This document shows, one piece after another, positions 2,219 to 61,758 of a DNA stretch of 64,000 bases. The translations under genes were made by a program, and so were the position numbers. The stretch's first letter is position 1. Each line of letters opens with the position of its first letter. The stretch covers positions 70,567-134,566 of the forward strand of contig CAYGXQ010000001.1 of assembly GCA_964354025.1 (NCBI GenBank), in the 5' to 3' direction. The notes under the pieces were generated by a model. The model did no database searches. It saw only the letters and a program-made list of their open reading frames with translations, and had not been told where the DNA came from. The stretch is from an uncultured Gammaproteobacteria bacterium. GTDB lineage: Bacteria; Patescibacteriota; Microgenomatia; 2-02-FULL-39-11.

Positions 2219-3310
2219 CTATCCAACTTCAACTTCCAAGTCCGGACGGGCCTGAATTTCTCTCCAGAGTACCGGGTGGTTGTGGAAATAAGCGTAACTG
2301 GCGATATAGCTGGCGTTGTCAGTGCAAAGGGAAGGAGGAGGAATATATAAATCAATTTTTAATTTTAAATTTTCAATTTTTAATTTGAACTTTTCCGTTA
2401 ACCGTTTATTAGCAGCGACACCGCCACCGAGGAGAATGGATTTCACCCGATATTTTTCGGCGGCTTTCAGGGTTTTATCCACGAGGACGTCAGTAATCGC
2501 TTCCTGGATTTCGTAAGATAGTTGTTGAATGGTGTAAGAATTAAGTTTCTTAAGTGCCTTAAGTTTATTTACTTCTCTTAAAACCGCGGTCTTCAGTCCG
2601 GAAAAGGAAAAATCAAAATTATCTTCATGCATCATCGGTCGGGGAAGTTTCACAATGTCATGCTGAACTCGTCCTGATTTAATCGGGATAAATTCAGGAT
2701 GATCATTACAGAACTTTGCAGCAGCATCTGCAATAGCTGGTCCACCGGGGTATCCAAGTCCCAAAAGTCTGGCAGTTTTGTCAAAAGTTTCTCCGGCCGC
2801 ATCATCGCGGGTCCCGCCGAGCCATATAATATCCCGGTGATTTTTCATCAAAAATAATTCCGTGTGTCCGCCGGAGACAACCAAAGCGATGGCTGGAAAA
2901 GAAGGAGGTTTTTCGACATCAAGCCAGTTGGCGTAAAGATGGGCCAGGACATGGTTGACCGGAATAATCGGTTTACCGGTAAGATAAACGATGGTTTTGG
3001 CTGTTTCTACGCCGACTAAAAGCGAACCGATTAAACCCGGTCCAATGGTTACTGCGATGGCGTCGATTTTTTCAATTGTTGCATTGTTGCATTGCTTGCC
3101 CTGAGCGGAGTCGAAGGGTTTCATTGTTTCATTTATTACGGGTATCATACACTTCACCTGTTCCCGGGCGGCCACTTCCGGAATAATCCCGCCGGTTTTC
3201 GTATGCAGGTCTTTTGAAGAGGAAACCACGTTGGAGAGAATTTTGACACCGTCCTCCACCAAAGCCGCAGCGGTTTCGTCACATGATGTTTCAATGCCTA
3301 AAATAATCAT
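2219..3310 (-). CDS. tsaD: tRNA N6-adenosine threonylcarbamoyltransferase TsaD (Kae1/YgjD family)
   Basis: MIILGIETSCDETAAAL..., AIAVTIGPGLIGSLLVG, VSGGHTELF. Start taken at internal Met (ATG 3308-3310) rather than the long ORF start that overlaps the upstream gene. Contains an in-frame repeat-derived insertion PFDSAQGKQ. Confidence 0.85.
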   Translation of the reverse strand: MIILGIETSCDETAAALVEDGVKILSNVVSSSKDLHTKTGGIIPEVAAREQVKCMIPVINETMKPFDSAQGKQCNNATIEKIDAIAVTIGPGLIGSLLVGVETAKTIVYLTGKPIIPVNHVLAHLYANWLDVEKPPSFPAIALVVSGGHTELFLMKNHRDIIWLGGTRDDAAGETFDKTARLLGLGYPGGPAIADAAAKFCNDHPEFIPIKSGRVQHDIVKLPRPMMHEDNFDFSFSGLKTAVLREVNKLKALKKLNSYTIQQLSYEIQEAITDVLVDKTLKAAEKYRVKSILLGGGVAANKRLTEKFKLKIENLKLKIDLYIPPPSLCTDNASYIASYAYFHNHPVLWREIQARPDLEVEVG

Positions 3311-8597: not shown

Positions 8598-9572
8598 ATG
8601 CCGCGACCACTTGAAAAAGCGATCATGAAAACTCTCATTTATGCTGATCTTTTTGATTATCCATTAACTAAGGAGGAGATTTGGAGAAGGTTGATAAAAT
8701 TACAAATTACAAATGATAAATTACAAATTAAATTAAAAAAATTAATAAATTCAATATTATTTGGGAAAAAAGAGAAATATTATTATTTGGTAGGGAGAGA
8801 GGAAATTATTCAATTGCGGAAAAGAAGGGAGAAATATTCGGAAGAAAAAGTAAAGATAGCCAGGCGGATTGCTAAACTTCTTAAATTTATTCCATTTGTT
8901 AAATTGGTCGGCTTGACCGGAGCGGTGGCCGCAGGAAACGCCGATGAAGATGATGATATCGATTTACTGATTATTACTTCGGGGAATTTGTTGTGGACGA
9001 CGCGTCTATTAGTTACTTTATCAGTTGATCTGATGGGACTTCGGCGAAGACCTGATGATAAAAAAGTGAAAAACAAAATCTGTTTAAATATGTTTATAGA
9101 TGAAAATTATTTGGCAATTGGTAAAGATGAAAGGGATTTGTTTACCGCTTACGAAATCACTCAGATGAAACCGCTGTTTGAAAAAAACCAGATATACAAG
9201 AGATTTATAAAAGCAAATGATTGGGTGGGAAAATATTTACCTAACGCTTTCAATGAACTAAGTACTTGTCCCATTGTCATCCCGACCGACCACAAGCGTG
9301 TAAACCACTTGTGGGAGTGGAGGGATCTTCCATATTCCGGAAGTTGGAAGATTCCTCCCCGATGGCCATCGGGACTCGGAATGACACTTTTTCGCTTGCT
9401 GGAAATACCAAGCAAGCGACTACAGCTTATATATATGAAAAAACGGCGCACGACCGAGAAAATCAAAACCGGAGTAATCCGATTTCACCCGAGGGATATC
9501 AGAAAGGAAATAATGAAACGGTTTGAGACGAGAGCCAAATCCCCCCTTGACAAGGTTTTTTTCACTGAGTAA
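8598..9572 (+). CDS. nucleotidyltransferase-domain protein (Pol beta superfamily) carrying two in-frame repeat insertions
   Basis: GLTGAVAAGNADEDDDIDLLII fits the GS-x(n)-DxD NTase motif. Residues KLQITNDKLQIKLKK are coded by the ttacaaattacaaat repeat (8697-8753). Residues CPIVIPTDHKRVNHLWEWRDL...LGMT are coded by a family-1 structured repeat (9276-9386). Confidence 0.55.
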   Translation: MPRPLEKAIMKTLIYADLFDYPLTKEEIWRRLIKLQITNDKLQIKLKKLINSILFGKKEKYYYLVGREEIIQLRKRREKYSEEKVKIARRIAKLLKFIPFVKLVGLTGAVAAGNADEDDDIDLLIITSGNLLWTTRLLVTLSVDLMGLRRRPDDKKVKNKICLNMFIDENYLAIGKDERDLFTAYEITQMKPLFEKNQIYKRFIKANDWVGKYLPNAFNELSTCPIVIPTDHKRVNHLWEWRDLPYSGSWKIPPRWPSGLGMTLFRLLEIPSKRLQLIYMKKRRTTEKIKTGVIRFHPRDIRKEIMKRFETRAKSPLDKVFFTE

Positions 9573-9600
9573 AATAGCACTCATCACAAGAAAGTGCCAA
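9547..9600 (+). promoter_or_regulatory. sigma70-like promoter (TTGACA-17-TAAAAT) overlapping a degenerate CIRCE operator upstream of groES
   Basis: TTGACA 9547-9552, TAAAAT 9570-9575. aTAGCACTC-N9-aAGTGCcAA at 9574-9600 matches the CIRCE consensus TTAGCACTC-N9-GAGTGCTAA at 15 of 18 positions. hrcA is present in the window. Confidence 0.6.
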
Positions 9601-9671
9601 TCCGCCAGCTGGCGGATTTAACCCAAATAAATATTTTAAAAAATTTGAACGGGTAAAGGAGGTCTTTATAT

Positions 9672-10106: not shown

Positions 10107-11774
<1,668 letters not shown>

Positions 11775-16590: not shown

Positions 16591-16652
16591 GATCCCTCGA
16601 TCCGCCAGCTGGCGGACTCGGGATGACAGAAAAGATTTAAATCTTTTCTGTC
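16591..16652. repeat. composite structured repeat: 16-bp perfect palindrome plus family-1 end module plus hairpin
   Basis: gatccctcga, then tccgccagctggcgga (16601-16616; the identical 16-mer is at 9601-9616), then ctcgggatgacag, then hairpin gacagaaaagatttaaatcttttctgtc. Confidence 0.6.
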
Positions 16653-22066: not shown

Positions 22067-25063
22067 ATGGATCAAAAGAAGTTAAATAAGGAACAGCTTG
22101 AGGCGATCCGTCACTGGAAAGGCCCGCTTCTGGTGATTGCCGGCGCGGGGACGGGTAAAACAACGGTTATAACCGAGCGGATCAAATGGCTGATTGCCGA
22201 AGGCCTGGCCAAACCAGCCGAAATTCTGGCTTTGACTTTTACCGATAAAGCGGCTCGGGAAATGGAAGAACGGGTTGACCGGGCGCTTCCTTACGGTTAT
22301 ACCCAAATGTGGATTACCACTTTTCATTCATTTGGGGAGCGGGTTTTACGGCAGGAAGCGATCCAGATAGGTTTGAATCCGGGATACCGGCTCATGGCTG
22401 AGGCGGAGAGTATCATTTTTTTCCGCAAAAACCTCTTTAAATTTAACCTGAATTATTTCCGGCCAATGGGAAATCCGAACAAGTTTATTTCCGGTATGCT
22501 GCAGCATTTTACCAGGTTTAAAGATGAAGACATATCACCTAAAGAATATTTTAATTGGGCGAAATTAAACAATGAAACAACCCGCCAGCCGGCGAGGCAG
22601 GTGAAACAATTGAACAATGAGGAAAAAACTATTGAGAGTGAAAAATATATGGAACTGTCTGATGCTTTTCAAAAGTATGAAGAACTGAAAGTCAAAGAAG
22701 GTTTGATGGATTTTTCCGACCTGATAACTAACACTCTAAATCTTTTCCGGTTAAGGAAAAATATTTTGAAAAATTATCAGGAGCAGTTTAAGTATGTCTT
22801 GATTGATGAATTCCAGGACACAAATTTTGCCCAAAATGAACTGGCGGTTCTTCTGGCCGGAAACAGAAAAAACATAACGGTCGTCGGGGACGATGATCAG
22901 GCGATTTACCGATGGCGCGGCGCGGCTGTTTCCAATATTATCCAATTCCGGCAAAAATTCCCGGAGGCAAAGCCGGTGGTTTTGACGAAAAATTACCGTT
23001 CCACCACTGAAATTCTTGACCGGTCATATGACCTTATCCAAAACAACAATCCAGACCGGTTGGAAGTAAAAGAGAAAATTAATAAAAAACTAGAAAGCCA
23101 AAGAGGGATAAAAGGAGAAAAAATAGAATTGATTTATGAAAAGAGAGTGGAAGATGAAGCGGAAAAAGTAGCTAAACAAATTACAAATTATAAATTACAA
23201 ATTACAAATGACGAAGGGAAAGAATTATACAGTTGGAAAGATTTTGCCATTTTGGTTCGGGCCAACAGTCAGGCAGAACCGTTTGCCAGGGCACTATCCC
23301 GGGCCGGTATCCCTCACCAGTTTTTAGGACCGGGCATGCTTTTTAGGCAGTCTGAAGTCAAAGACCTGATCGCTTACCTTAAATTACTCGACGACTTCAC
23401 TGATTCGGTGGCCTTTTTCCGGGTTGTCACAATGCCGGTTTTTGGGATAAACACCCGGGATATTTATGCCGTCAATAATTTTGCCAAAAGAGTCGGGCTT
23501 TCCTTATTTGAAGCAGTTGAGGTGGTGGTGGCGTTTTTCTTAGGCGATGAAGGACATTGGAGCCGGATGAAAAATTACCAGAATTACCTGCCGTATACAG
23601 GCGAAACTACCAAAGAAAAACTGACCAAGATAATGAAAATGATCAACCGGCATTTGGATTTGGCCAGAAAAGAAACCGCCGGTCAGGTTCTCTACTACTT
23701 TCTGGAAGACAGCGGCATTTTGAAAGAACTGGTTGAGTACAAGACGGTCAAAGAGGAAAAGACCGCCTTAAATATCTCGAAATTTTTCGACAAGCTGAAG
23801 ACTTTTGAGACGGAACACGAAGAAGCAAATGTAGCGGCGGTGGTTGATTGGATTGAAATGGCGATGGAACTGGGTGAAAGTCCCCTGGCGGCGGATACTG
23901 ACTGGTCACAAAATGACGCGGTAAATATCCTGACAGTCCATTCGGCTAAAGGATTGGAGTTTCCGGTGGTCTTTTTAGTCAATCTGGTTAACCAGCGTTT
24001 TCCGACAGTTGAGCGGCATGAACAAATTCCCATCCCTGATGAGCTGGTGAAGGAGATATTGCCGGAAGGGGATTATCATCTGGAGGAGGAAAGACGGCTG
24101 TTTTACGTAGGTATGACCAGGGCCCGCGACCGGCTGATTTTGACCGCGGCCAATTTCTACGGAGAGGGCAAAAGAGAAAGGAAGATCTCGCAGTTTGTGA
24201 TGGAAACGTTGGGAGAGAAGAACATCAATAATTTAACAATTCAACCCTTCGACTTCGCTCAGGGTAAGCAATTGACTCTTTTAGAATGGAAAAAAACTGA
24301 AGAATTACCGGCCAAAACTATTAAACAACCCATCGAATATCTTTCTTATTCCCAAATTGAGAGTTTCACGACCTGTCCGCTGCAGTATAAATACCGCTAT
24401 ATCATCAGAATTCCGGCCCCTCCTTCGGCCGCCGGCTCTTTCGGAACATCCATCCATCTGACTTTGCAGAAATTTTACGAGCGGGTTAAAAGAGGCGAGC
24501 GGCCGCAAAAAGAGGATTTATTGCAGATATTGGATGAGGTCTGGCTGCCGGTCGGTTACGGTTCGAAACAATATGAAGAGAAAATGAAGACCAGAGGCCG
24601 CGACATGCTTCAGGCTTTTTTTGAGAAATTTTACGATCCCGACAAAAAGCCAAAAAGCCTGGAGCAGATTTTTAAGATAAAGCTGACACCGACTCTTAAA
24701 ATCGGCGGCAAAATCGACCGGGTGGATGAGACGCCTGACGGAAAGTTGGAAATTATCGATTACAAAACCGGCAAACGTCCCACCGATAAGGCCATCGCCG
24801 AAAACCTGCAGATGACGGTTTACGCGCTGGCCGCCTGCGACTCCGGTATTTACAACAGACGGCCGGAAGAAGTGGTTCTTTCTTTTTATTTTTTTGACGC
24901 CCGGGAGAAAGTAACTTCGACTAGGACAAAAGAACAGTTGGAAGAAGCCAAGAAAAAACTCCTGGAAAAAGCCCAAGATATTGCATCAAGCGATTTCTCT
25001 CCAAAAGTGGGCAAATGGTGCGATTTTTGCGATTTCCGCCTCATCTGTGAAGCCTGGCAATAA
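22067..25063 (+). CDS. UvrD/PcrA-family helicase fused to a C-terminal PD-(D/E)xK (RecB/Cas4-type) nuclease domain with Cys cluster
   Basis: Walker A GAGTGKTT, DEFQDT, VTLTKNYRS, C-terminal YSQIESFTTCPLQYKYRY...IDYKTGK...CDFCDFRLICEAW. Two in-frame repeat insertions at 23175-23212 and 24243-24264. Confidence 0.85.
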   Translation: MDQKKLNKEQLEAIRHWKGPLLVIAGAGTGKTTVITERIKWLIAEGLAKPAEILALTFTDKAAREMEERVDRALPYGYTQMWITTFHSFGERVLRQEAIQIGLNPGYRLMAEAESIIFFRKNLFKFNLNYFRPMGNPNKFISGMLQHFTRFKDEDISPKEYFNWAKLNNETTRQPARQVKQLNNEEKTIESEKYMELSDAFQKYEELKVKEGLMDFSDLITNTLNLFRLRKNILKNYQEQFKYVLIDEFQDTNFAQNELAVLLAGNRKNITVVGDDDQAIYRWRGAAVSNIIQFRQKFPEAKPVVLTKNYRSTTEILDRSYDLIQNNNPDRLEVKEKINKKLESQRGIKGEKIELIYEKRVEDEAEKVAKQITNYKLQITNDEGKELYSWKDFAILVRANSQAEPFARALSRAGIPHQFLGPGMLFRQSEVKDLIAYLKLLDDFTDSVAFFRVVTMPVFGINTRDIYAVNNFAKRVGLSLFEAVEVVVAFFLGDEGHWSRMKNYQNYLPYTGETTKEKLTKIMKMINRHLDLARKETAGQVLYYFLEDSGILKELVEYKTVKEEKTALNISKFFDKLKTFETEHEEANVAAVVDWIEMAMELGESPLAADTDWSQNDAVNILTVHSAKGLEFPVVFLVNLVNQRFPTVERHEQIPIPDELVKEILPEGDYHLEEERRLFYVGMTRARDRLILTAANFYGEGKRERKISQFVMETLGEKNINNLTIQPFDFAQGKQLTLLEWKKTEELPAKTIKQPIEYLSYSQIESFTTCPLQYKYRYIIRIPAPPSAAGSFGTSIHLTLQKFYERVKRGERPQKEDLLQILDEVWLPVGYGSKQYEEKMKTRGRDMLQAFFEKFYDPDKKPKSLEQIFKIKLTPTLKIGGKIDRVDETPDGKLEIIDYKTGKRPTDKAIAENLQMTVYALAACDSGIYNRRPEEVVLSFYFFDAREKVTSTRTKEQLEEAKKKLLEKAQDIASSDFSPKVGKWCDFCDFRLICEAWQ

Positions 25064-33489: not shown

Positions 33490-33534
33490 GGAATAGCGCA
33501 CTTTAGTGCGCGCGCAGACTAAAGTCTGCTATTA
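33490..33534. repeat. family-2 double-hairpin repeat
   Basis: aatagcgcacTTTAgtgcgc gcgcagacTAAAgtctgctatt. Confidence 0.65.
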
Positions 33535-41519: not shown

Positions 41520-41625
41520 TTTCCGTCCTCTGTATTCTGTCTTCCGATTTCTGTCCTCCATTTTCTGCTTTCAGTCTTCCGTATTCTGTCTTCTGACTTC
41601 CGTCCTCCAACTTCCGTCTTCGATA
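41520..41625. repeat. pyrimidine-rich tandem decamer array (consensus about TTCYGTCYTCC); complement strand GGA-rich
   Basis: About 9-10 imperfect units read directly in the sequence: ttctgtcctcc / attttctgct / ttcagtcttcc / gtattctgtcttc / tgacttccgtcctcc / aacttccgtcttcg. Confidence 0.6.
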
Positions 41626-42387: not shown

Positions 42388-42756
42388 TAATAATAGTATA
42401 TAATATATTTTTTCGCTTCTTCAGAGCGTAAAAAAGTATTTTCTCTGTTTTCGTCCTGCCTTCAGTTTATTGAAGGAATGGACTCATCAGTACCGATTCC
42501 ATCGGTAAAACAGAGAAATTCAGATGGTAAAGGTTATGGTAGGAAGGTAATCCCGAAAAGGGATACAAATTAGAACCTAAGGTTCTAAAACCCCTTCCGG
42601 AAAATACCCAGACACCATAAACCAGCAAGAAAGGCTCATGCAGACAAAGCCGCACAATTTCTCGATATCCAATCGGATACCGATCATGCCTTTCTGCTCC
42701 CTCTGAATTCTCTTGAAGAAAAGATCGATTAGTCAAGGCCGCCAAGCCTTTGACTT

Positions 42757-49970: not shown

Positions 49971-50026
49971 GAAGATCCCTCAACGAAGTTTATCCTGAGC
50001 GAAGTCGAAGGGTTCGGGATGACAGA
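49971..50026. repeat. family-1 structured repeat, half copy
   Basis: ggaagatccctcaacgaagtttatcctgagcgaagtcgaagggttcgggatgacag; contains the same 22-mer found in frame in tsaD and in the helicase. Confidence 0.65.
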
Positions 50027-50033
50027 TACAATT

Positions 50034-51476
50034 TTACGGAAACAGGAGGAGTTTGGTGCCTAAGAAAAGCAAGGCGGCGGAGGCGGCAAACAGGATGGTA
50101 GTAGGCCCGGTTGAGCCTGATCGGGGAGCGCCGACGGGCGGTGAGGTTGGTTGCGGTTGCAGAGTAGGCGCAATTACAGTCGGTTGAACCGCGGTCGGTT
50201 GAGGAGGGCTGGTGGGGGCCGGTGTAGCTGAAGGAACGGTCGGCGCGGTGGTTGGGATGGTTGTGGGAGACGGAAGGCAAACTGAAGGAGCACAGGTAAC
50301 GGTTATCAGTTCTCCCGATAAGGTGGCCTCGCCCAAGACGCTTTCCCCGCTTTTGAGAACATAAAAAGTTTTCTTGACAGTAACTAATTTCCCGGAAGAA
50401 TCATATGATTGGATAGTGACTTCATGCAAGCCCGGTTCAAGGTTTTTCGGCGGGGTCCAGGACCAGGTACCGTCTTTGGCGGTTTTTATTTTCCCCGTCT
50501 GCGGATCAGATTTAACCGTAATGAGAACCTGACTGCCCGGCCGGGCCACTCCCCGCAGTTTGGGTTTCTTATCCGGAGTATAATCACGGTCGTTTTGGGG
50601 GAAAAGGATATCGATCTCCGCGGGCTTTTCCGGTTTTTTCGTCATGGTGGGAAAAATGGTGACCGCGGTTTTCGCCCCCAAAATATTTTGATTGTTCAGT
50701 TTAGCCAGTTGGTCTTTTTTGGAAAGCAAATTGATAAAATTGTAAGAATTGCCGATGACCATGTCGGGAATTGCCAGGTTTTGTTTGATGGATTTCAGAT
50801 CAATGACGGCTGAAGAAACTCCATCAGAAGAATTTTTCACCGTTATTTGGATAAGATCACTGTCGGATAAATTCGGCCGTGAAAGAAGGTCTCCGGTTCG
50901 TAAATTATTAAAAGGGATAACCCAAAGCCCAAGTTTATCGGTTTTGCCGGACAAGATGGAATTATTGCTCACCGTCAAGTAGACGATAGCACCTTCTTGA
51001 GGTTTGCCGTTTTTATCTACGATGACGCCGTGAGTCGGCGGCAAGTCGAGCGTCGAAGACAATTTCGAAGCGGTTTTTTGGGAAAAAACCGGGCATGCCC
51101 GTTCTTCTTTACAGGAATTTGTCCCGCTGATGACTTTCACCGAATAGTTCGTGTCTTCGCTTAAATTTTTCACTGTTACATAATGAGTATTTCTTGGGCG
51201 CGGCAGATTGTCACTGTCGCCGTCATCCAAAAAGGTTAGCTTTTGCACGTCCGAAGAAACAACAACAGAACCGGTCGTTTCTTGGGCCGTCAGCCAGGAA
51301 ACGGTTAAGGAACTATCAGAGACATTGGTAAATTGGACATCCACCGGTACATTCGACGGATTAGCCATTGAGGTAAACGACTGGGGTCGGCGGTCCAAAT
51401 AAACACCAATGCCTAAGCCTCCGAGGATAAGGAAAAGGGCTATAATTGTCGGAATCTTTTTTTCTTTGCGGTACAT
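50034..51476 (-). CDS. surface protein with FN3-like and Ig-like domains, Pro/Thr linker and C-terminal TM anchor
   Basis: N-terminal TM; PVDVQFTNVSDSSLTVSWLT...TNYSVKV (FN3-like); Ig-like segment; PT-rich stretch; C-terminal ILFAASAALLFLGTKLLLFP. Confidence 0.5.
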   Translation of the reverse strand: MYRKEKKIPTIIALFLILGGLGIGVYLDRRPQSFTSMANPSNVPVDVQFTNVSDSSLTVSWLTAQETTGSVVVSSDVQKLTFLDDGDSDNLPRPRNTHYVTVKNLSEDTNYSVKVISGTNSCKEERACPVFSQKTASKLSSTLDLPPTHGVIVDKNGKPQEGAIVYLTVSNNSILSGKTDKLGLWVIPFNNLRTGDLLSRPNLSDSDLIQITVKNSSDGVSSAVIDLKSIKQNLAIPDMVIGNSYNFINLLSKKDQLAKLNNQNILGAKTAVTIFPTMTKKPEKPAEIDILFPQNDRDYTPDKKPKLRGVARPGSQVLITVKSDPQTGKIKTAKDGTWSWTPPKNLEPGLHEVTIQSYDSSGKLVTVKKTFYVLKSGESVLGEATLSGELITVTCAPSVCLPSPTTIPTTAPTVPSATPAPTSPPQPTAVQPTVIAPTLQPQPTSPPVGAPRSGSTGPTTILFAASAALLFLGTKLLLFP

Positions 51477-52277: not shown

Positions 52278-52832
52278 TTATTGGAAAAATTTTTGATTAA
52301 TTTTGGCCTTTACTTTATATTCTATCTTACCGTCTGTCCGGCGTAAAATATCCTCAAGGGTGACCTCAGAAAACTTGTTCTCTTTCTGAAGCTGTTGAAG
52401 AAGGTAGCTGAAACTGCGAAGGTTTGAGGCAGTGGCTGCGAAAGTGATCCGGTCGCCTGAAAGTGAGACGGTGGTGTAGTAAGTGTCGACCGGCGTATTT
52501 TCCTGCAGGAAATGCAGAACCTTACTGTATAAGTTTTGGTTTTCGGAGGTTGTGCGGATATCCGCCAGTTTTCCCTGTACACGTCTGATATCCGTTTCCA
52601 GATCAGCCACTGATTCGACGATAGCCTGTTTTTGGCTGACTGATTCTTTCAAATCGGTATGATCGCGGTCCAGCTTAAAGCGGAGAAAAAAAACGATCAG
52701 GACAGTGATTTGGGTCAGAATGATAATATAACGGCCGTAAGTTAAGGCCCAGGCAAGAAACTGTTCGGAAAAAGAGGTCGGTGCTTCCCGGACGACGAGG
52801 TTGATATTGACTTTCGGTTTTTGGGCAGACAT
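52278..52832 (-). CDS. pilN: type IV pilus assembly protein PilN-like
   Basis: N-terminal KVNINLVVRE (compare PilN INLLPWRE), single TM, periplasmic domain. Confidence 0.6.
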   Translation of the reverse strand: MSAQKPKVNINLVVREAPTSFSEQFLAWALTYGRYIIILTQITVLIVFFLRFKLDRDHTDLKESVSQKQAIVESVADLETDIRRVQGKLADIRTTSENQNLYSKVLHFLQENTPVDTYYTTVSLSGDRITFAATASNLRSFSYLLQQLQKENKFSEVTLEDILRRTDGKIEYKVKAKINQKFFQ

Positions 52833-52836
52833 AAAG

Positions 52837-52893
52837 ACAATTATAAATTACAAATTCTAAATTATAAATTAAATTAAAAATTCAATAATTAAG
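52837..52893. repeat. AT-rich ttacaaatt/ttataaatt repeat, intergenic copy
   Basis: acaattataaattacaaattctaaattataaattaaattaaaaattcaataattaag; same family as the in-frame copies at 8697-8753 and 23175-23212. Confidence 0.6.
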
Positions 52894-52916
52894 AATGAGA
52901 GAGATCTTTAACTAAA

Positions 52917-56391: not shown

Positions 56392-56564
56392 ATAGCGGAC
56401 TTTAGTCCGCGTCCTTCGGCTTCACTCAGGACAAGTTCAGCGCGCACTTAAAGTGCGCTATTCCAGAAACTGTGGCAAGCCAAATACGTGAATTCAAGGT
56501 GGAAGATCCCTCGACTTCTCCTTCGTCTCGCTTCGTTCGCTCAGGATTCGCTCGGAATGACGAC
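56392..56564. repeat. family-2 double-hairpin repeat fused to a family-1 half copy
   Basis: taatagcggacTTTAgtccgcg...agcgcgcacTTAAagtgcgctattcc (56392-56466), then ggaagatccctcgacttctcc...gctcggaatgacg (56501-56564). Confidence 0.6.
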
Positions 56565-59788: not shown

Positions 59789-61705
59789 ATGTCAAAAATT
59801 ATCGGTATTGATTTAGGAACAACCAATTCCTGTGTGGCGGTGATGGAGGGCGGCAGTCCCAAAGTCATCCATTCAGCCGAAGGCCGGAATGTCATCCCCT
59901 CGGTCGTTGATCCGGTAAAAAGGGTTGTCGGTGATGTGGCCAAAAGACAGATAGTTATCAATCCCAAATCGACGGTTTATTCCATTAAAAGATTAGTTGG
60001 TAGAAAATATTCTGATAAATCAGTGCAGCATGATATAAAACTTTTACCTTATGCGATAAAAAGTGGTCGGGACAATATGGCGGTTGTGGAAGTGGCCGGC
60101 AAAACATACACCCCGCAGGAAATCTCGGCAATGATTTTACAGAAAATCAAGGCCGATGCTGAAAGTTATCTGGGCGAGAAAGTGACGGAAGCGGTCATCA
60201 CTGTACCGGCTTATTTTGACGACAGCCAAAGGCAGGCCACCAAGCAGGCCGGAGAAATTGCCGGTTTGACGGTTAAAAGGATCTTGAACGAACCGACGGC
60301 CGCCGCTTTAGCTTATGGTCTTGAGAAAAAACACGCCCATACAGTGGCAGTTTATGACCTGGGCGGCGGAACTTTTGACATCTCCGTTTTGGAACTGGGT
60401 GAGGGAGTCTATGAAGTCAAAGCCACCAACGGCGATACTCATCTGGGTGGAGATGATTTTGACAAAAAAATCCTTGACTATTTAGCCGACGAATTTAAAA
60501 AGGAAAACGGGGTGGATTTGCGCCGCGACCCGCAGGCACTGCAGCGTCTTCGGGACGCGGCGGAAAAAGCCAAAATAGAACTCTCAAGCAGTCTGGAAGC
60601 GGAGATCAATCTCCCTTTTATCACCCAGGGAAAAGAAGGGCCGCTGCATCTGGTGACCAAGCTAACACGCTCGAAGCTGGAGAGTATTGTCGGTGATTTG
60701 ATCGACAGCACTATTACTCCGGTTGAAGCTTGTCTGAAAGACGCCAAAATCACCAAAGATAAAATTGACGAGATTGTGATGGTTGGGGGAATGACGCGGA
60801 TGCCGAAAGTAGTGGAAGTAGTGGAAAAATTTTTCGGCAAAGAACCGAACCGTTCCGTCAATCCCGACGAAGTGGTAGCAATAGGAGCGGCAGTCCAGGC
60901 CGGTGTTTTGACCGGAGAAGTGCGTGATGTCGTCCTTTTGGATGTGACGCCGCTTACATTAGGAGTAGAAACTTTAGGACGAGTAATGACGCCGCTGATT
61001 ACCAGAAATACGACCGTGCCGACTTCTAAATCGGAAATTTTCTCAACCGCCGCCGATAATCAGACTTCGGTTGAAATAAACGTCCTTCAGGGAGAACGGC
61101 CGATGGCAGCAGATAATAAATCACTGGGCCGGTTTATCCTCGACGGTATCCCGCCGGCGCCAAGAGGAGTGCCGCAGGTGGAAGTGACTTTTGACATAGA
61201 CGCCAACGGCATCTTAAACGTTTCTGCTAAAGATAAAGCGTCCGGCAAAAGCCAGAGCATCAAGATCACCGGTTCGACCGGTCTTTCCAAAGACGAAATT
61301 GAGAAGATGACCAAAGAGGCAGAAGCTCACGCTTCGGAAGACAGCGACAAAAAAGAGAAGATCGAAACCAGGAATAAAGCGGATAACATGATCTATGTGG
61401 CGGAGAAGTCGCTGAAAGACGCCGGTGACAAAGTCAGCGCTGAAATAAAAAAAGAAGTCGAGGAAAAAATCAGCGTCTTGAGAGGGATTTTGGAAAGCGG
61501 TACCAAAGAAGATCTGGAAGTAAAGACGAAAGATCTTTCCGACTCAATGCAAAAAATCGGCCAGGCGATGTATCAACAGCAACAGCAAGCCTCTTCTGCA
61601 AAACCTTCCGAGGAGAAGCCAACCGGTGATGATAAGAACGGGGAGGATAAGAAAAAGAATCATGCGAAAAAAGAGGATGCGCAGGAAGGGGAAGTGGTTA
61701 GTTAG
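59789..61705 (+). CDS. dnaK: molecular chaperone DnaK (Hsp70)
   Basis: [33 protein letters not shown]; RBS AAGGAGG. Confidence 0.97.
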
Positions 61706-61735
61706 TTGTAAGTTGTAGGTTGTAAGTTATAAGTT

Positions 61736-61758
61736 GGGGCGCGCTTCGCGCGCCCTTT
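61736..61758 (+). terminator. GC-rich hairpin with UUCG loop followed by T-run (attenuator/terminator between dnaK and dnaJ)
   Basis: ggggcgcgc ttcg cgcgcccc ttt. Confidence 0.6.

Follow-up and report, generated by a model that had tools for sequence, protein, structure and literature searches.

Why should the same short GC-rich sequence lie in frame in two unrelated conserved genes, and how is it related to the AT-rich tandem repeats found in the same genes? The question is raised by a 64-kb stretch of bacterial DNA (the window, which was the within-genome material for this work) and in particular by its genes for a helicase-nuclease and for TsaD. We consider it likely that the helicase gene carries members of two associated classes of repeats, both of a non-coding type, which in this lineage colonise the tolerant loops of conserved proteins, and that one of them, a 24-nt unit, behaves as a tiny mobile or repeatedly copied-in element. 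The first class consists of AT-rich tandem arrays of 7–8 nt and the second of short GC-rich cores. The 24-mer looks like selfish DNA, not like a purposeful peptide. Orthologous loci are labelled with L-numbers and homologous proteins with P-numbers.

A 24-nt repeat in two conserved genes

The two genes and the copies of the 24-mer in the window are as follows.

22067..25063, plus strand: UvrD/PcrA-type helicase fused to a PD-(D/E)xK nuclease, 998 aa (Pfam)
24245..24268, plus strand: 24-nt small dispersed repeat CCCTTCGACTTCGCTCAGGGTAAG in the helicase-nuclease linker, coding PFDFAQGK (aa 727–734)
2219..3310, minus strand: tsaD, the gene carrying the second genic 24-mer (homology to solved TsaD structures)
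3095..3118, minus strand: 24-nt copy CCCTTCGACTCCGCTCAGGGCAAG in tsaD, coding PFDSAQGK (aa 65–72)
49991..50014, minus strand: intergenic copy (AA)CCCTTCGACTTCGCTCAGGATAAA, 20 nt past the stop codon of open reading frame (ORF) 50034..51476
56417..56440, plus strand: degenerate relative CCTTCGGCTTCACTCAGGACAAGT between two GC-rich hairpins

In most bacteria tsaD is an essential gene. The helicase-nuclease has three Pfam domains, UvrD-helicase (aa 6–299), UvrD_C (aa 304–695), and PDDEXK_1 (aa 759–995), and its product is 100% identical to P0001, found on an NCBI contig of 139 kb. Among named homologs, the closest belong to Candidatus Gottesmanbacteria (Patescibacteria, also known as CPR). An initial annotation of the window had described a 22-mer in this gene, coding PFDFAQGKQ, and the sequence (AACCCTTCGACTTCGCTCAGGG) is indeed present at 24243–24264(+). 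Its placement in the linker between the helicase and nuclease parts also holds, as aa 727–734 fall between the end of UvrD_C (aa 695) and the start of PDDEXK_1 (aa 759). The length of the repeat had to be corrected, because the true unit has 24 nt (24245–24268) and not 22. We formulate this unit as CCCTTCGACTYCGCTCAGGGYAAG, 24 nt, which contains the 22-mer.

One-mismatch copies of the 22-mer were found at 3099–3120(-) in tsaD and at 49993–50014(-) between genes, giving three matches in the window vs 0.00 expected (100 shuffles). For the 24-mer, three near-exact and about three degenerate copies occur in the 64 kb vs 0 expected. The helicase and tsaD copies have 31 nt in common, with two mismatches, and both read PFD(F/S)AQGKQ in gene sense, which bears out the earlier statement that they share frame and orientation.

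Filled and empty alleles at the tsaD site

Alignment to solved TsaD structures has a 9-aa gap where the insert sits. The junction in the window reads ACAATGAAA/CCCTTCGACTCCGCTCAGGGCAAG/CAATGCAAC (slashes mark the junctions). In L123, a tsaD with 79% nucleotide identity to that of the window, it reads ACAATGAAA/CAATGTTCC, an empty site (ACAATGAAA/CAATG), and in L124 (90% identity to L123) an 18-nt perfect palindrome, CCTGCCTGCGCAGGCAGG, occupies the same junction as ACAATGAAA/CCTGCCTGCGCAGGCAGG/CAATGTTCC. A further tsaD, L125 (70% identity to the window), has TTGAAA/CCCTTCGACTACGCTCAGGGCAAG/CAATATAGC, and its element is identical to the window copy at 23 of 24 bases (P = 0.002 under gene-wide identity). 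With the gene as a whole only 70% identical, so close a match in the DNA indicates that selection or copying has acted on nucleotides and not on protein. Filled and empty alleles of tsaD differ by exactly 24 nt, and no target duplication longer than 1 nt was found at the tsaD junctions.

A neighbor-joining (NJ) tree was constructed from 70 TsaD proteins with the insert-site columns left out. It places the carriers of this element type, P0121, P0125, P0130, and P0142, in four clades, each with empty-site sisters. On this tree the element would have been gained at a single codon junction at least four times independently, or else precisely lost equally often. The same junction has been entered repeatedly in different lineages, and older genic copies decay; the element of P0130, for example, now reads PFASTQGK. 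Together, the filled and empty alleles and the tree uphold the proposal of recurrent insertion in the initial annotation: one and the same DNA mini-element has entered unrelated conserved genes again and again.

AlphaFold2 models of TsaD and of the helicase-nuclease were built from alignments A1 and A2. The TsaD insert lies between a helix (aa 45–69) and a strand (aa 84–90), and the predicted local distance difference test (pLDDT) score is 63–77 for aa 61–80, with flanks >90.

Directly beside the tsaD copy is a tandem repeat of the AT-rich class.

3075..3099, minus strand: octamer tandem repeat GCAACAAT (coding strand) x3, directly 3' of the tsaD copy (Tandem Repeats Finder)

This repeat belongs to the AT-rich target context ACAATGAAA/CAATG and codes QCNNATI. 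In L123 (3001–4047) a different octamer, CAATGTTN x3, is found in the same place and codes QCSNVTM. Different octamers at the same place in tsaD suggest that a coding tandem repeat has evolved in concert. Near the TsaD C-terminus, a heptamer/21-mer array at 2352–2395(-), built of AATTTTT and related units, codes KFKLKIENLKLKI and is a further repeat-derived segment within tsaD.

The helicase linker and a third insertion

At the helicase linker junction, a GC-rich segment ending GG(N)AAG/CAR is present in all orthologs of 71–90% identity. The linker of L126 reads ACAATGAAA/CCCTTCGACGCGACTCAGGGCAAG/CAATTG. L121, the closest ortholog (86% nucleotide identity), carries a 30-nt variant of its own, CCCGCCTTCGCCGAAGCTTCGGAGGGCAAG; the variant of L128, also of 30 nt, is yet another; and the copy of L127 has decayed, with matches at 16 of 24 bases. 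In L121 and L126 the linker flanks, ACAATGAAA and CAAT, are the same as at the tsaD site. The turnover of linker variants does not follow the gene tree. That related variants occupy the linker in all of these orthologs points to a site that is old or repeatedly turned over, and not to a private new insertion in the window. The linker (aa 726–748) is modelled as coil with pLDDT <50.

The gene contains one more insertion, which the initial annotation had missed.

22581..22602, plus strand: third insertion, GC-rich core CCCGCCAGCCGGCGAGGCAGGT, coding TRQPARQV (aa 175–182)

This insert is in-frame and lies between the 12-nt direct repeats TTAAACAATGAA and TTGAACAATGAG. It is shared by the 90%-identical ortholog L121 and absent from L128 and L129 (73–74% identity). 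Residues 178–180 are again predicted as coil with pLDDT <50, and according to the models the GC-rich inserts of the helicase and TsaD all lie in flexible loops. The core is related to a palindrome, TCCGCCAGCTGGCGGA, found at 9600–9617, 11712–11731, and 16601–16616; two of these three window copies lie just past gene ends.

Distribution and insertion contexts of the element

We searched for the 24-mer and its 18-mer core (CCTTCGACTYCGCTCAGG) in sequence collections. The scans covered exact matches, and counts are lower bounds. The core was found at at least 120 loci in GTDB contigs (one genome per species, isolate genomes included), with matches listed from Acidobacteriota, Bacteroidota, Alphaproteobacteria, Chloroflexota, Spirochaetes, Planctomycetota, cyanobacteria, Saccharibacteria, Curtissbacteria, and others. 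At least 120 loci in IMG/VR also contain the core, and the exact 24-mer occurs at at least 120 loci in JGI metagenomes, on contigs of 28–71% GC. The element is not universal: 5,426 complete E. coli genomes had no match to it, and GenBank cultured-phage records gave chance-level partial matches only (E >= 2). Among the matches listed, most 24-mer copies are outside long ORFs. An assembly artefact was excluded by the presence of copies in independent NCBI, JGI, ENA, and Logan assemblies and in isolate genomes. Cultivable carriers include Flavobacterium anhuiense (L076, complete chromosome) and Treponema saccharophilum DSM 2985 (L014).

The surroundings of 114 copies were compared with 1,200 random controls. 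Inverted 7-mers across the element were found for 24 of the 114 copies (21%) vs 47 controls (p = 6e-10), and period-7 flanks for eight copies vs one control. Removing exactly 24 nt restored period-7 continuity in eight copies vs none of the controls. The unit is thereby independently defined as 24 nt inserted without duplication. The receiving arrays have many different units, including AAAATCA, AATTTTC, GGTGTAG, CTTCCGT, CTGATCA, and CCAGTCA; their junctions with the 24-mer are clean, with no target duplication. The centres of inverted repeats and the interiors of heptamer arrays are therefore preferred sites. The initial annotation had called the two repeats of the helicase gene unrelated. 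This does not hold, as metagenome 24-mers are significantly embedded in heptamer tandem arrays, which makes heptamer arrays and GC-rich cores associated classes.

The window has its own examples of this association in the octamer beside the tsaD copy and in an array/palindrome pair at 61704–61755. The array of this pair, (AGTTGTA) x4.7 at 61704–61736, overlaps the end of ORF 59789..61705 and directly abuts the GC-rich palindrome GGGCGCGCTTCGCGCGCCC (61737–61755), which is followed by TTT and is possibly a terminator. Helicase orthologs likewise have GC-rich peptides inside 7-aa periodic peptides, such as SNLI-LRFGGQ-ISNLRY in P0049.

Head-to-tail arrays of the element with a period of 24–27 nt were observed in L113 (six copies), L028 (three copies), and L101, so the unit can also amplify in tandem. 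Two HsdS genes, L239 4920–6245 and L147 892–2262, on contigs of 28% and 55% GC, respectively, have an identical 24-mer in the same position. In both it follows WFV(K/Q)FDF, and the left flank, TTYGAYTT, resembles the element's own TTCGACTT.

Reading frames of genic copies

If the encoded peptide mattered, copies in genes should favor one frame. The initial annotation had described the unit as peptide-coding and had named a random distribution of frames and orientations as the outcome that would speak against it. Genic status was assigned when Pfam domains flanked or spanned the copy, which yielded 28 copies, 12 of them through the genome scan and 16 through that of metagenomes.

Frame PFDxAQG, nine copies: type II secretion system (T2SS) ATPase, agmatine deiminase, BipA, HsdS (two), ComF-like
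Frame LRLRSGQ, five copies: DNA ligase, LeuRS, aconitase
Frame PSTSLRA, five copies: ComM, ArgRS, FtsA
Frame LSxVEG (antisense), six copies: MnmA, P-type ATPase, polyketide synthase (PKS)
Frame PERSRR (antisense), three copies: Pth, HflX, Mur ligase
Stop-containing frame: no copies

These validated copies use all five stop-free frames and both orientations, and so no peptide frame appears to be selected. The counts (9/5/5/6/3) fit an even use of the open frames (chi-square p = 0.49), and the two orientations fit the 3:2 expected from the numbers of open frames (p = 0.45). This tabulation, made outside the genome of the window, shows no frame bias, and the distribution there is largely the random one. 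The 24-mer has stops in one of six frames, and the GGGTAAG variant found in the helicase has stops in two of six. Reading frames are preserved because the unit of 24 nt equals eight codons and five of the six frames are free of stops. That the two window copies share a frame has a chance of about 1 in 5 and is no evidence for a peptide-coding element. In unrelated bacteria the exact 24-mer is in-frame in ArgRS, LeuRS, FtsA, MnmA, Pth, aconitase, MutS, HsdS, and other genes, which likewise supports recurrent insertion.

Heptamer arrays in the helicase gene and elsewhere

The AT-rich class is represented in the helicase gene and at two other loci by arrays of the same heptamer unit.

23176..23209, plus strand: heptamer array ACAAATT x4.9, coding QITNYKLQITN (aa 371–381) (Tandem Repeats Finder)
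8697–8740: AAATTAC array inside the nucleotidyltransferase ORF 8598..9572 (NTP_transf_2 domain protein)
52839–52896: AAATTAC array, intergenic, upstream of ORF 52278..52832(-)

The first of these (period 7, 4.9 copies, 92% matches) is the ttacaaatt-type repeat coding QITNYKLQITN that had been noticed initially, and Tandem Repeats Finder recovered it. Arrays of AAATTAC are thus found at three window loci, in genes as well as outside them. The pattern AAATTACAAATTA, allowing up to one mismatch, occurs nine times in the window vs 0.49 expected. Strict tandem tracts in the window have a period of 7 (three tracts) or 8 (one tract), and none was found with periods of 5, 6, 9, or 10. A period 7/14 intergenic array, TTCTGTCTTCCGTC x6, was observed at 41535–41621, and its heptamer family also flanks the 24-mer in metagenome locus L249.

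The heptamer-coded segment of the helicase is about 7 aa longer than in PcrA (1pjr) and is modelled by AlphaFold2 as the end of helix 361–378 plus a turn (pLDDT ~86). The closest ortholog, L121, has no clean heptamer array at this loop. Even so, the period-7 signal of the loop falls within the top 1–4% of gene windows in four of six orthologs, and many other helicase orthologs have loop peptides that are 7-aa periodic with differing units (KNLKLKIKN, SSIKYQVSSIKY, NAKCQMPNAK). Judged from these sequences, the loop is a long-standing heptamer site at which the unit is re-homogenised lineage by lineage. The array at 23176–23209 is distinct and was homogenised recently; its unit, AAATTAC, is the one favoured in the genome.

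One helicase ortholog, P0085 (1,423 aa), has an insertion of ~400 aa directly after the GDDDQ helicase motif. It matches the intein-splicing Pfam family PF14890 in precomputed domains and is an intein in the helicase family.

RNA structure and RNA families

On the plus strand the intergenic copy at 49991–50014 forms an 11-bp stem that includes G.U pairs. Its fold was not better than those of shuffled sequences (z = 0.34) and no terminator-like site was found over these positions, and the copy was rejected as an intrinsic terminator on both grounds. Genic copies also fold no better than shuffles (z ~0). The region at 56395–56470, where two hairpins surround the degenerate 24-mer, folds far better than shuffles (z = -4.86). 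A hairpin family, GCGSACTTTAGTSCGC, was observed at 33496–33511, 56395–56410, and 56442–56458.

Rfam was searched at the gathering score (window and 18 loci) and in E-value mode (window and complete element). No family matched the 24-mer in the window, in the 18 loci, or in the full Bacteroidota-type element. Matches to n00280 reflect coding conservation of the helicase, and a Flavo-1 match in L083 lies elsewhere in the locus and not on the 24-mer. ARAGORN identified no tRNA or tmRNA in the window. A resemblance to a tRNA T-arm, 23S rRNA, or a hammerhead core was dismissed, as the conserved positions do not appear to fit. A sub-threshold match to Hammerhead_3 was observed at 42443–42515(-), with 29 bits vs a gathering score of 48.5 (E = 0.043).

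Alternative explanations

The nucleotide-level identity of the 24-mer could also come about without dedicated mobility, if cores were copied by gene conversion or by microhomology-mediated template switching with the AT-rich repeats as homology. At three insertion sites, spread over two genes, the flanks are AT-rich and nearly identical (AACAATGAAA ... CAATKSA), the GC-rich linker variants replace one another independently of the gene tree, and the left flank of the HsdS copies, TTYGAYTT, is similar to the element's own TTCGACTT, all of which suits such copying. We nevertheless regard it as rather unlikely. Arrays of quite different units (AAAATCA, GGTGTAG, CTTCCGT, CTGATCA, and others) all receive the identical 24 nt with clean junctions, which leaves little flank homology to drive conversion, and identity across genomes of 28–71% GC is left unexplained. 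Identity at the nucleotide level across many phyla might instead mark a selected nucleic-acid signal, be it an RNA structure, a site bound by protein, or a signal for recombination or uptake, with genic copies being functional. The position of 21% of copies between inverted repeats would agree with this, as would the presence of genome-maintenance genes among the carriers (this helicase, MutS, DNA ligase, ComM). Such a signal is distinctly improbable given that genic copies fold no better than shuffles, no Rfam family matches, orthologous genic copies decay, empty alleles are common, and the intergenic copy is not terminator-like; uptake signals, moreover, are lineage-specific, and the 24-mer is not.

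Selection at the protein level, either for PFDFAQGK as a peptide motif or for an ancestral loop sequence, is scarcely credible. It can appeal to the shared frame of the window copies and to PFDxAQ being the commonest frame (nine of 28), but the frame distribution is not different from uniform, most copies are outside long ORFs, the segment is predicted to be disordered or of low confidence, and close orthologs do without the insert. For the heptamer array, we considered a contingency (phase-variation) locus that would switch the helicase by slipped-strand mispairing. As the unit length is not a multiple of three, adding or dropping a single unit changes the reading frame, and the array is clean (92% matches) and recent. 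However, the copies number just 4.9, arrays of this kind occupy the loop in many orthologs and are always in frame, and no frameshifted allele was seen among the 120 homologs listed; such switching is very improbable.

A mobile or repeatedly copied-in 24-mer is the reading that we prefer, and several points weigh against it. Gain at the tsaD site is not fully separable from precise loss, and the number of gains is approximate because the NJ tree was built from one protein of ~300 aa. No empty-site allele of the helicase linker was found among the orthologs examined. Mobility is deduced from comparative presence and absence in sequences; no enzyme, intermediate, or insertion/excision event was observed.

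Comparison with known systems

The nearest precedent for the 24-mer, compared by description, is found in the small dispersed repeats (SDRs) of Nostoc. Citing papers describe SDR1–8 of Nostoc/Anabaena (Elhai et al. 2008) as 21–27 nt long and of suspected mobility, with HIP1 as the target of SDR5 (PMC3116915, PMC5861425, PMC2884548). The 24-mer is of the same size class (24 nt here vs 21–27 nt there), and its copies would likewise count as dispersed. According to Elhai and colleagues, SDRs are reportedly often embedded in tandem heptamer repeats and palindromic contexts, and their mobility is said to have been inferred from presence or absence at orthologous positions. The 24-mer is similarly embedded in heptamer arrays and inverted-repeat contexts, and here too mobility is inferred from orthologous presence and absence (tsaD of the window, L123, L124, and L125). 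In contrast to the SDRs, hosts of the 24-mer come from many phyla, including CPR, and are not limited to Nostocaceae, in-frame occupation of housekeeping genes is prominent, and no conserved fold was found for genic copies. By size, heptamer embedding, and presence/absence at orthologous positions, the 24-mer would fit the small-dispersed-repeat type. In the accessible literature we found no description of such an element outside the cyanobacterial SDRs, and no mention of the 24-mer as a DNA or RNA string or of the peptides derived from it.

Short motifs can be tolerated in ORFs through DNA-level drive, as with yeast mitochondrial GC clusters and DNA uptake sequences. These resemble the 24-mer as short GC-rich or over-represented motifs in tolerant ORF parts of AT-rich genomes; they differ in that their sequences, hosts, and mechanisms are unrelated to it and that uptake sequences are lineage-specific. 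Rickettsia palindromic elements (RPEs), according to a summary (PMC10969869) of Ogata et al. (2000, 2002), are in-frame insertions in unrelated metabolic and housekeeping genes, tolerated at fold-compatible positions. They offer an analogy to the in-frame insertion of the 24-mer in the helicase, TsaD, and the 28 Pfam-validated copies. RPEs are palindromes of ~100–150 bp from one genus, each with a conserved encoded peptide, whereas the 24-mer has 24 nt, lacks a long palindrome, uses five frames, and spans many phyla. For the heptamer arrays, the parallel is with the STRR heptanucleotide repeats of cyanobacteria (Mazel et al. 1990; mentioned in PMC2670836 and PMC4748335), which share tandem 7-nt units and the occurrence of the same unit at several genome loci inside and outside genes. 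Here, by contrast, the host is a member of the CPR, the units are AT-rich, and in conserved enzymes the arrays encode loop peptides with a period of 7 aa.

REP/REPIN sequences are extragenic palindromes of 20–40 bp with a GTAG or CGTC tag, mobilised by RAYT transposases (PMC3116915, PMC3733652). Like them, the 24-mer is short, GC-rich, dispersed, and hairpin-associated, and a trans-acting enzyme working on single-stranded DNA is plausible for both. Unlike them, it is weakly self-complementary, and two of the three window copies are genic. Neither GTAG nor CGTC occurs in the 24-mer or its reverse complement, and it was rejected as a REP/REPIN for want of this tag. Assignment to MITEs (miniature transposable elements of ~50–500 bp with terminal inverted repeats and target-site duplications) was also rejected, as no terminal inverted repeats and no duplication >1 nt were found.

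A possible mechanism and its implications

Under the preferred reading, genic copies of the 24-mer would be near-neutral survivors of spreading at the DNA level, and the encoded peptide (PFDFAQGK here) would be incidental and without a role. With eight codons and five of six frames open, insertion into a coding loop may be nearly neutral, so that copies could survive even in housekeeping genes. Insertion would take place in trans, most likely where slipped heptamer arrays and hairpins extrude loops of single-stranded DNA, and in AT-rich genomes it would prefer A-rich junctions that end in ...CAA. The agent could be a dedicated, horizontally spread enzyme or a replication-linked template switch. 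If a horizontally spread factor recognised the 24-mer, this would account for its being identical across phyla at the nucleotide level.

The scale and precision of the 24-nt element set this case above the ordinary. We tentatively entertain a more far-reaching possibility, in which horizontally spread machinery actively places the element, conserved base for base across many phyla (28–71% GC), in heptamer arrays, at the tips of hairpins, and in coding loops, with no duplication of the target. It might then be what the SDRs are in cyanobacteria, but on a pan-bacterial scale, and the smallest among known mobile DNAs that can remodel essential proteins. If truly mobile, the 24-mer would be among the smallest mobile DNAs known, with machinery still to be discovered. 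Exact junctions, the preference for arrays and hairpins, and cultivable carriers make the movement of very small mobile repeats directly testable.

The 24-mer explains a large class of odd peptides (PFDFAQGK, LRLRSGQA, PSTSLRA, LSEVEG, and PERSRR) that turn up in predicted proteins and in the spurious ORFs of metagenomes. It also marks hypervariable loops of CPR housekeeping proteins, and cassettes of eight codons, together with coding heptamer arrays, diversify protein surfaces in reduced genomes.

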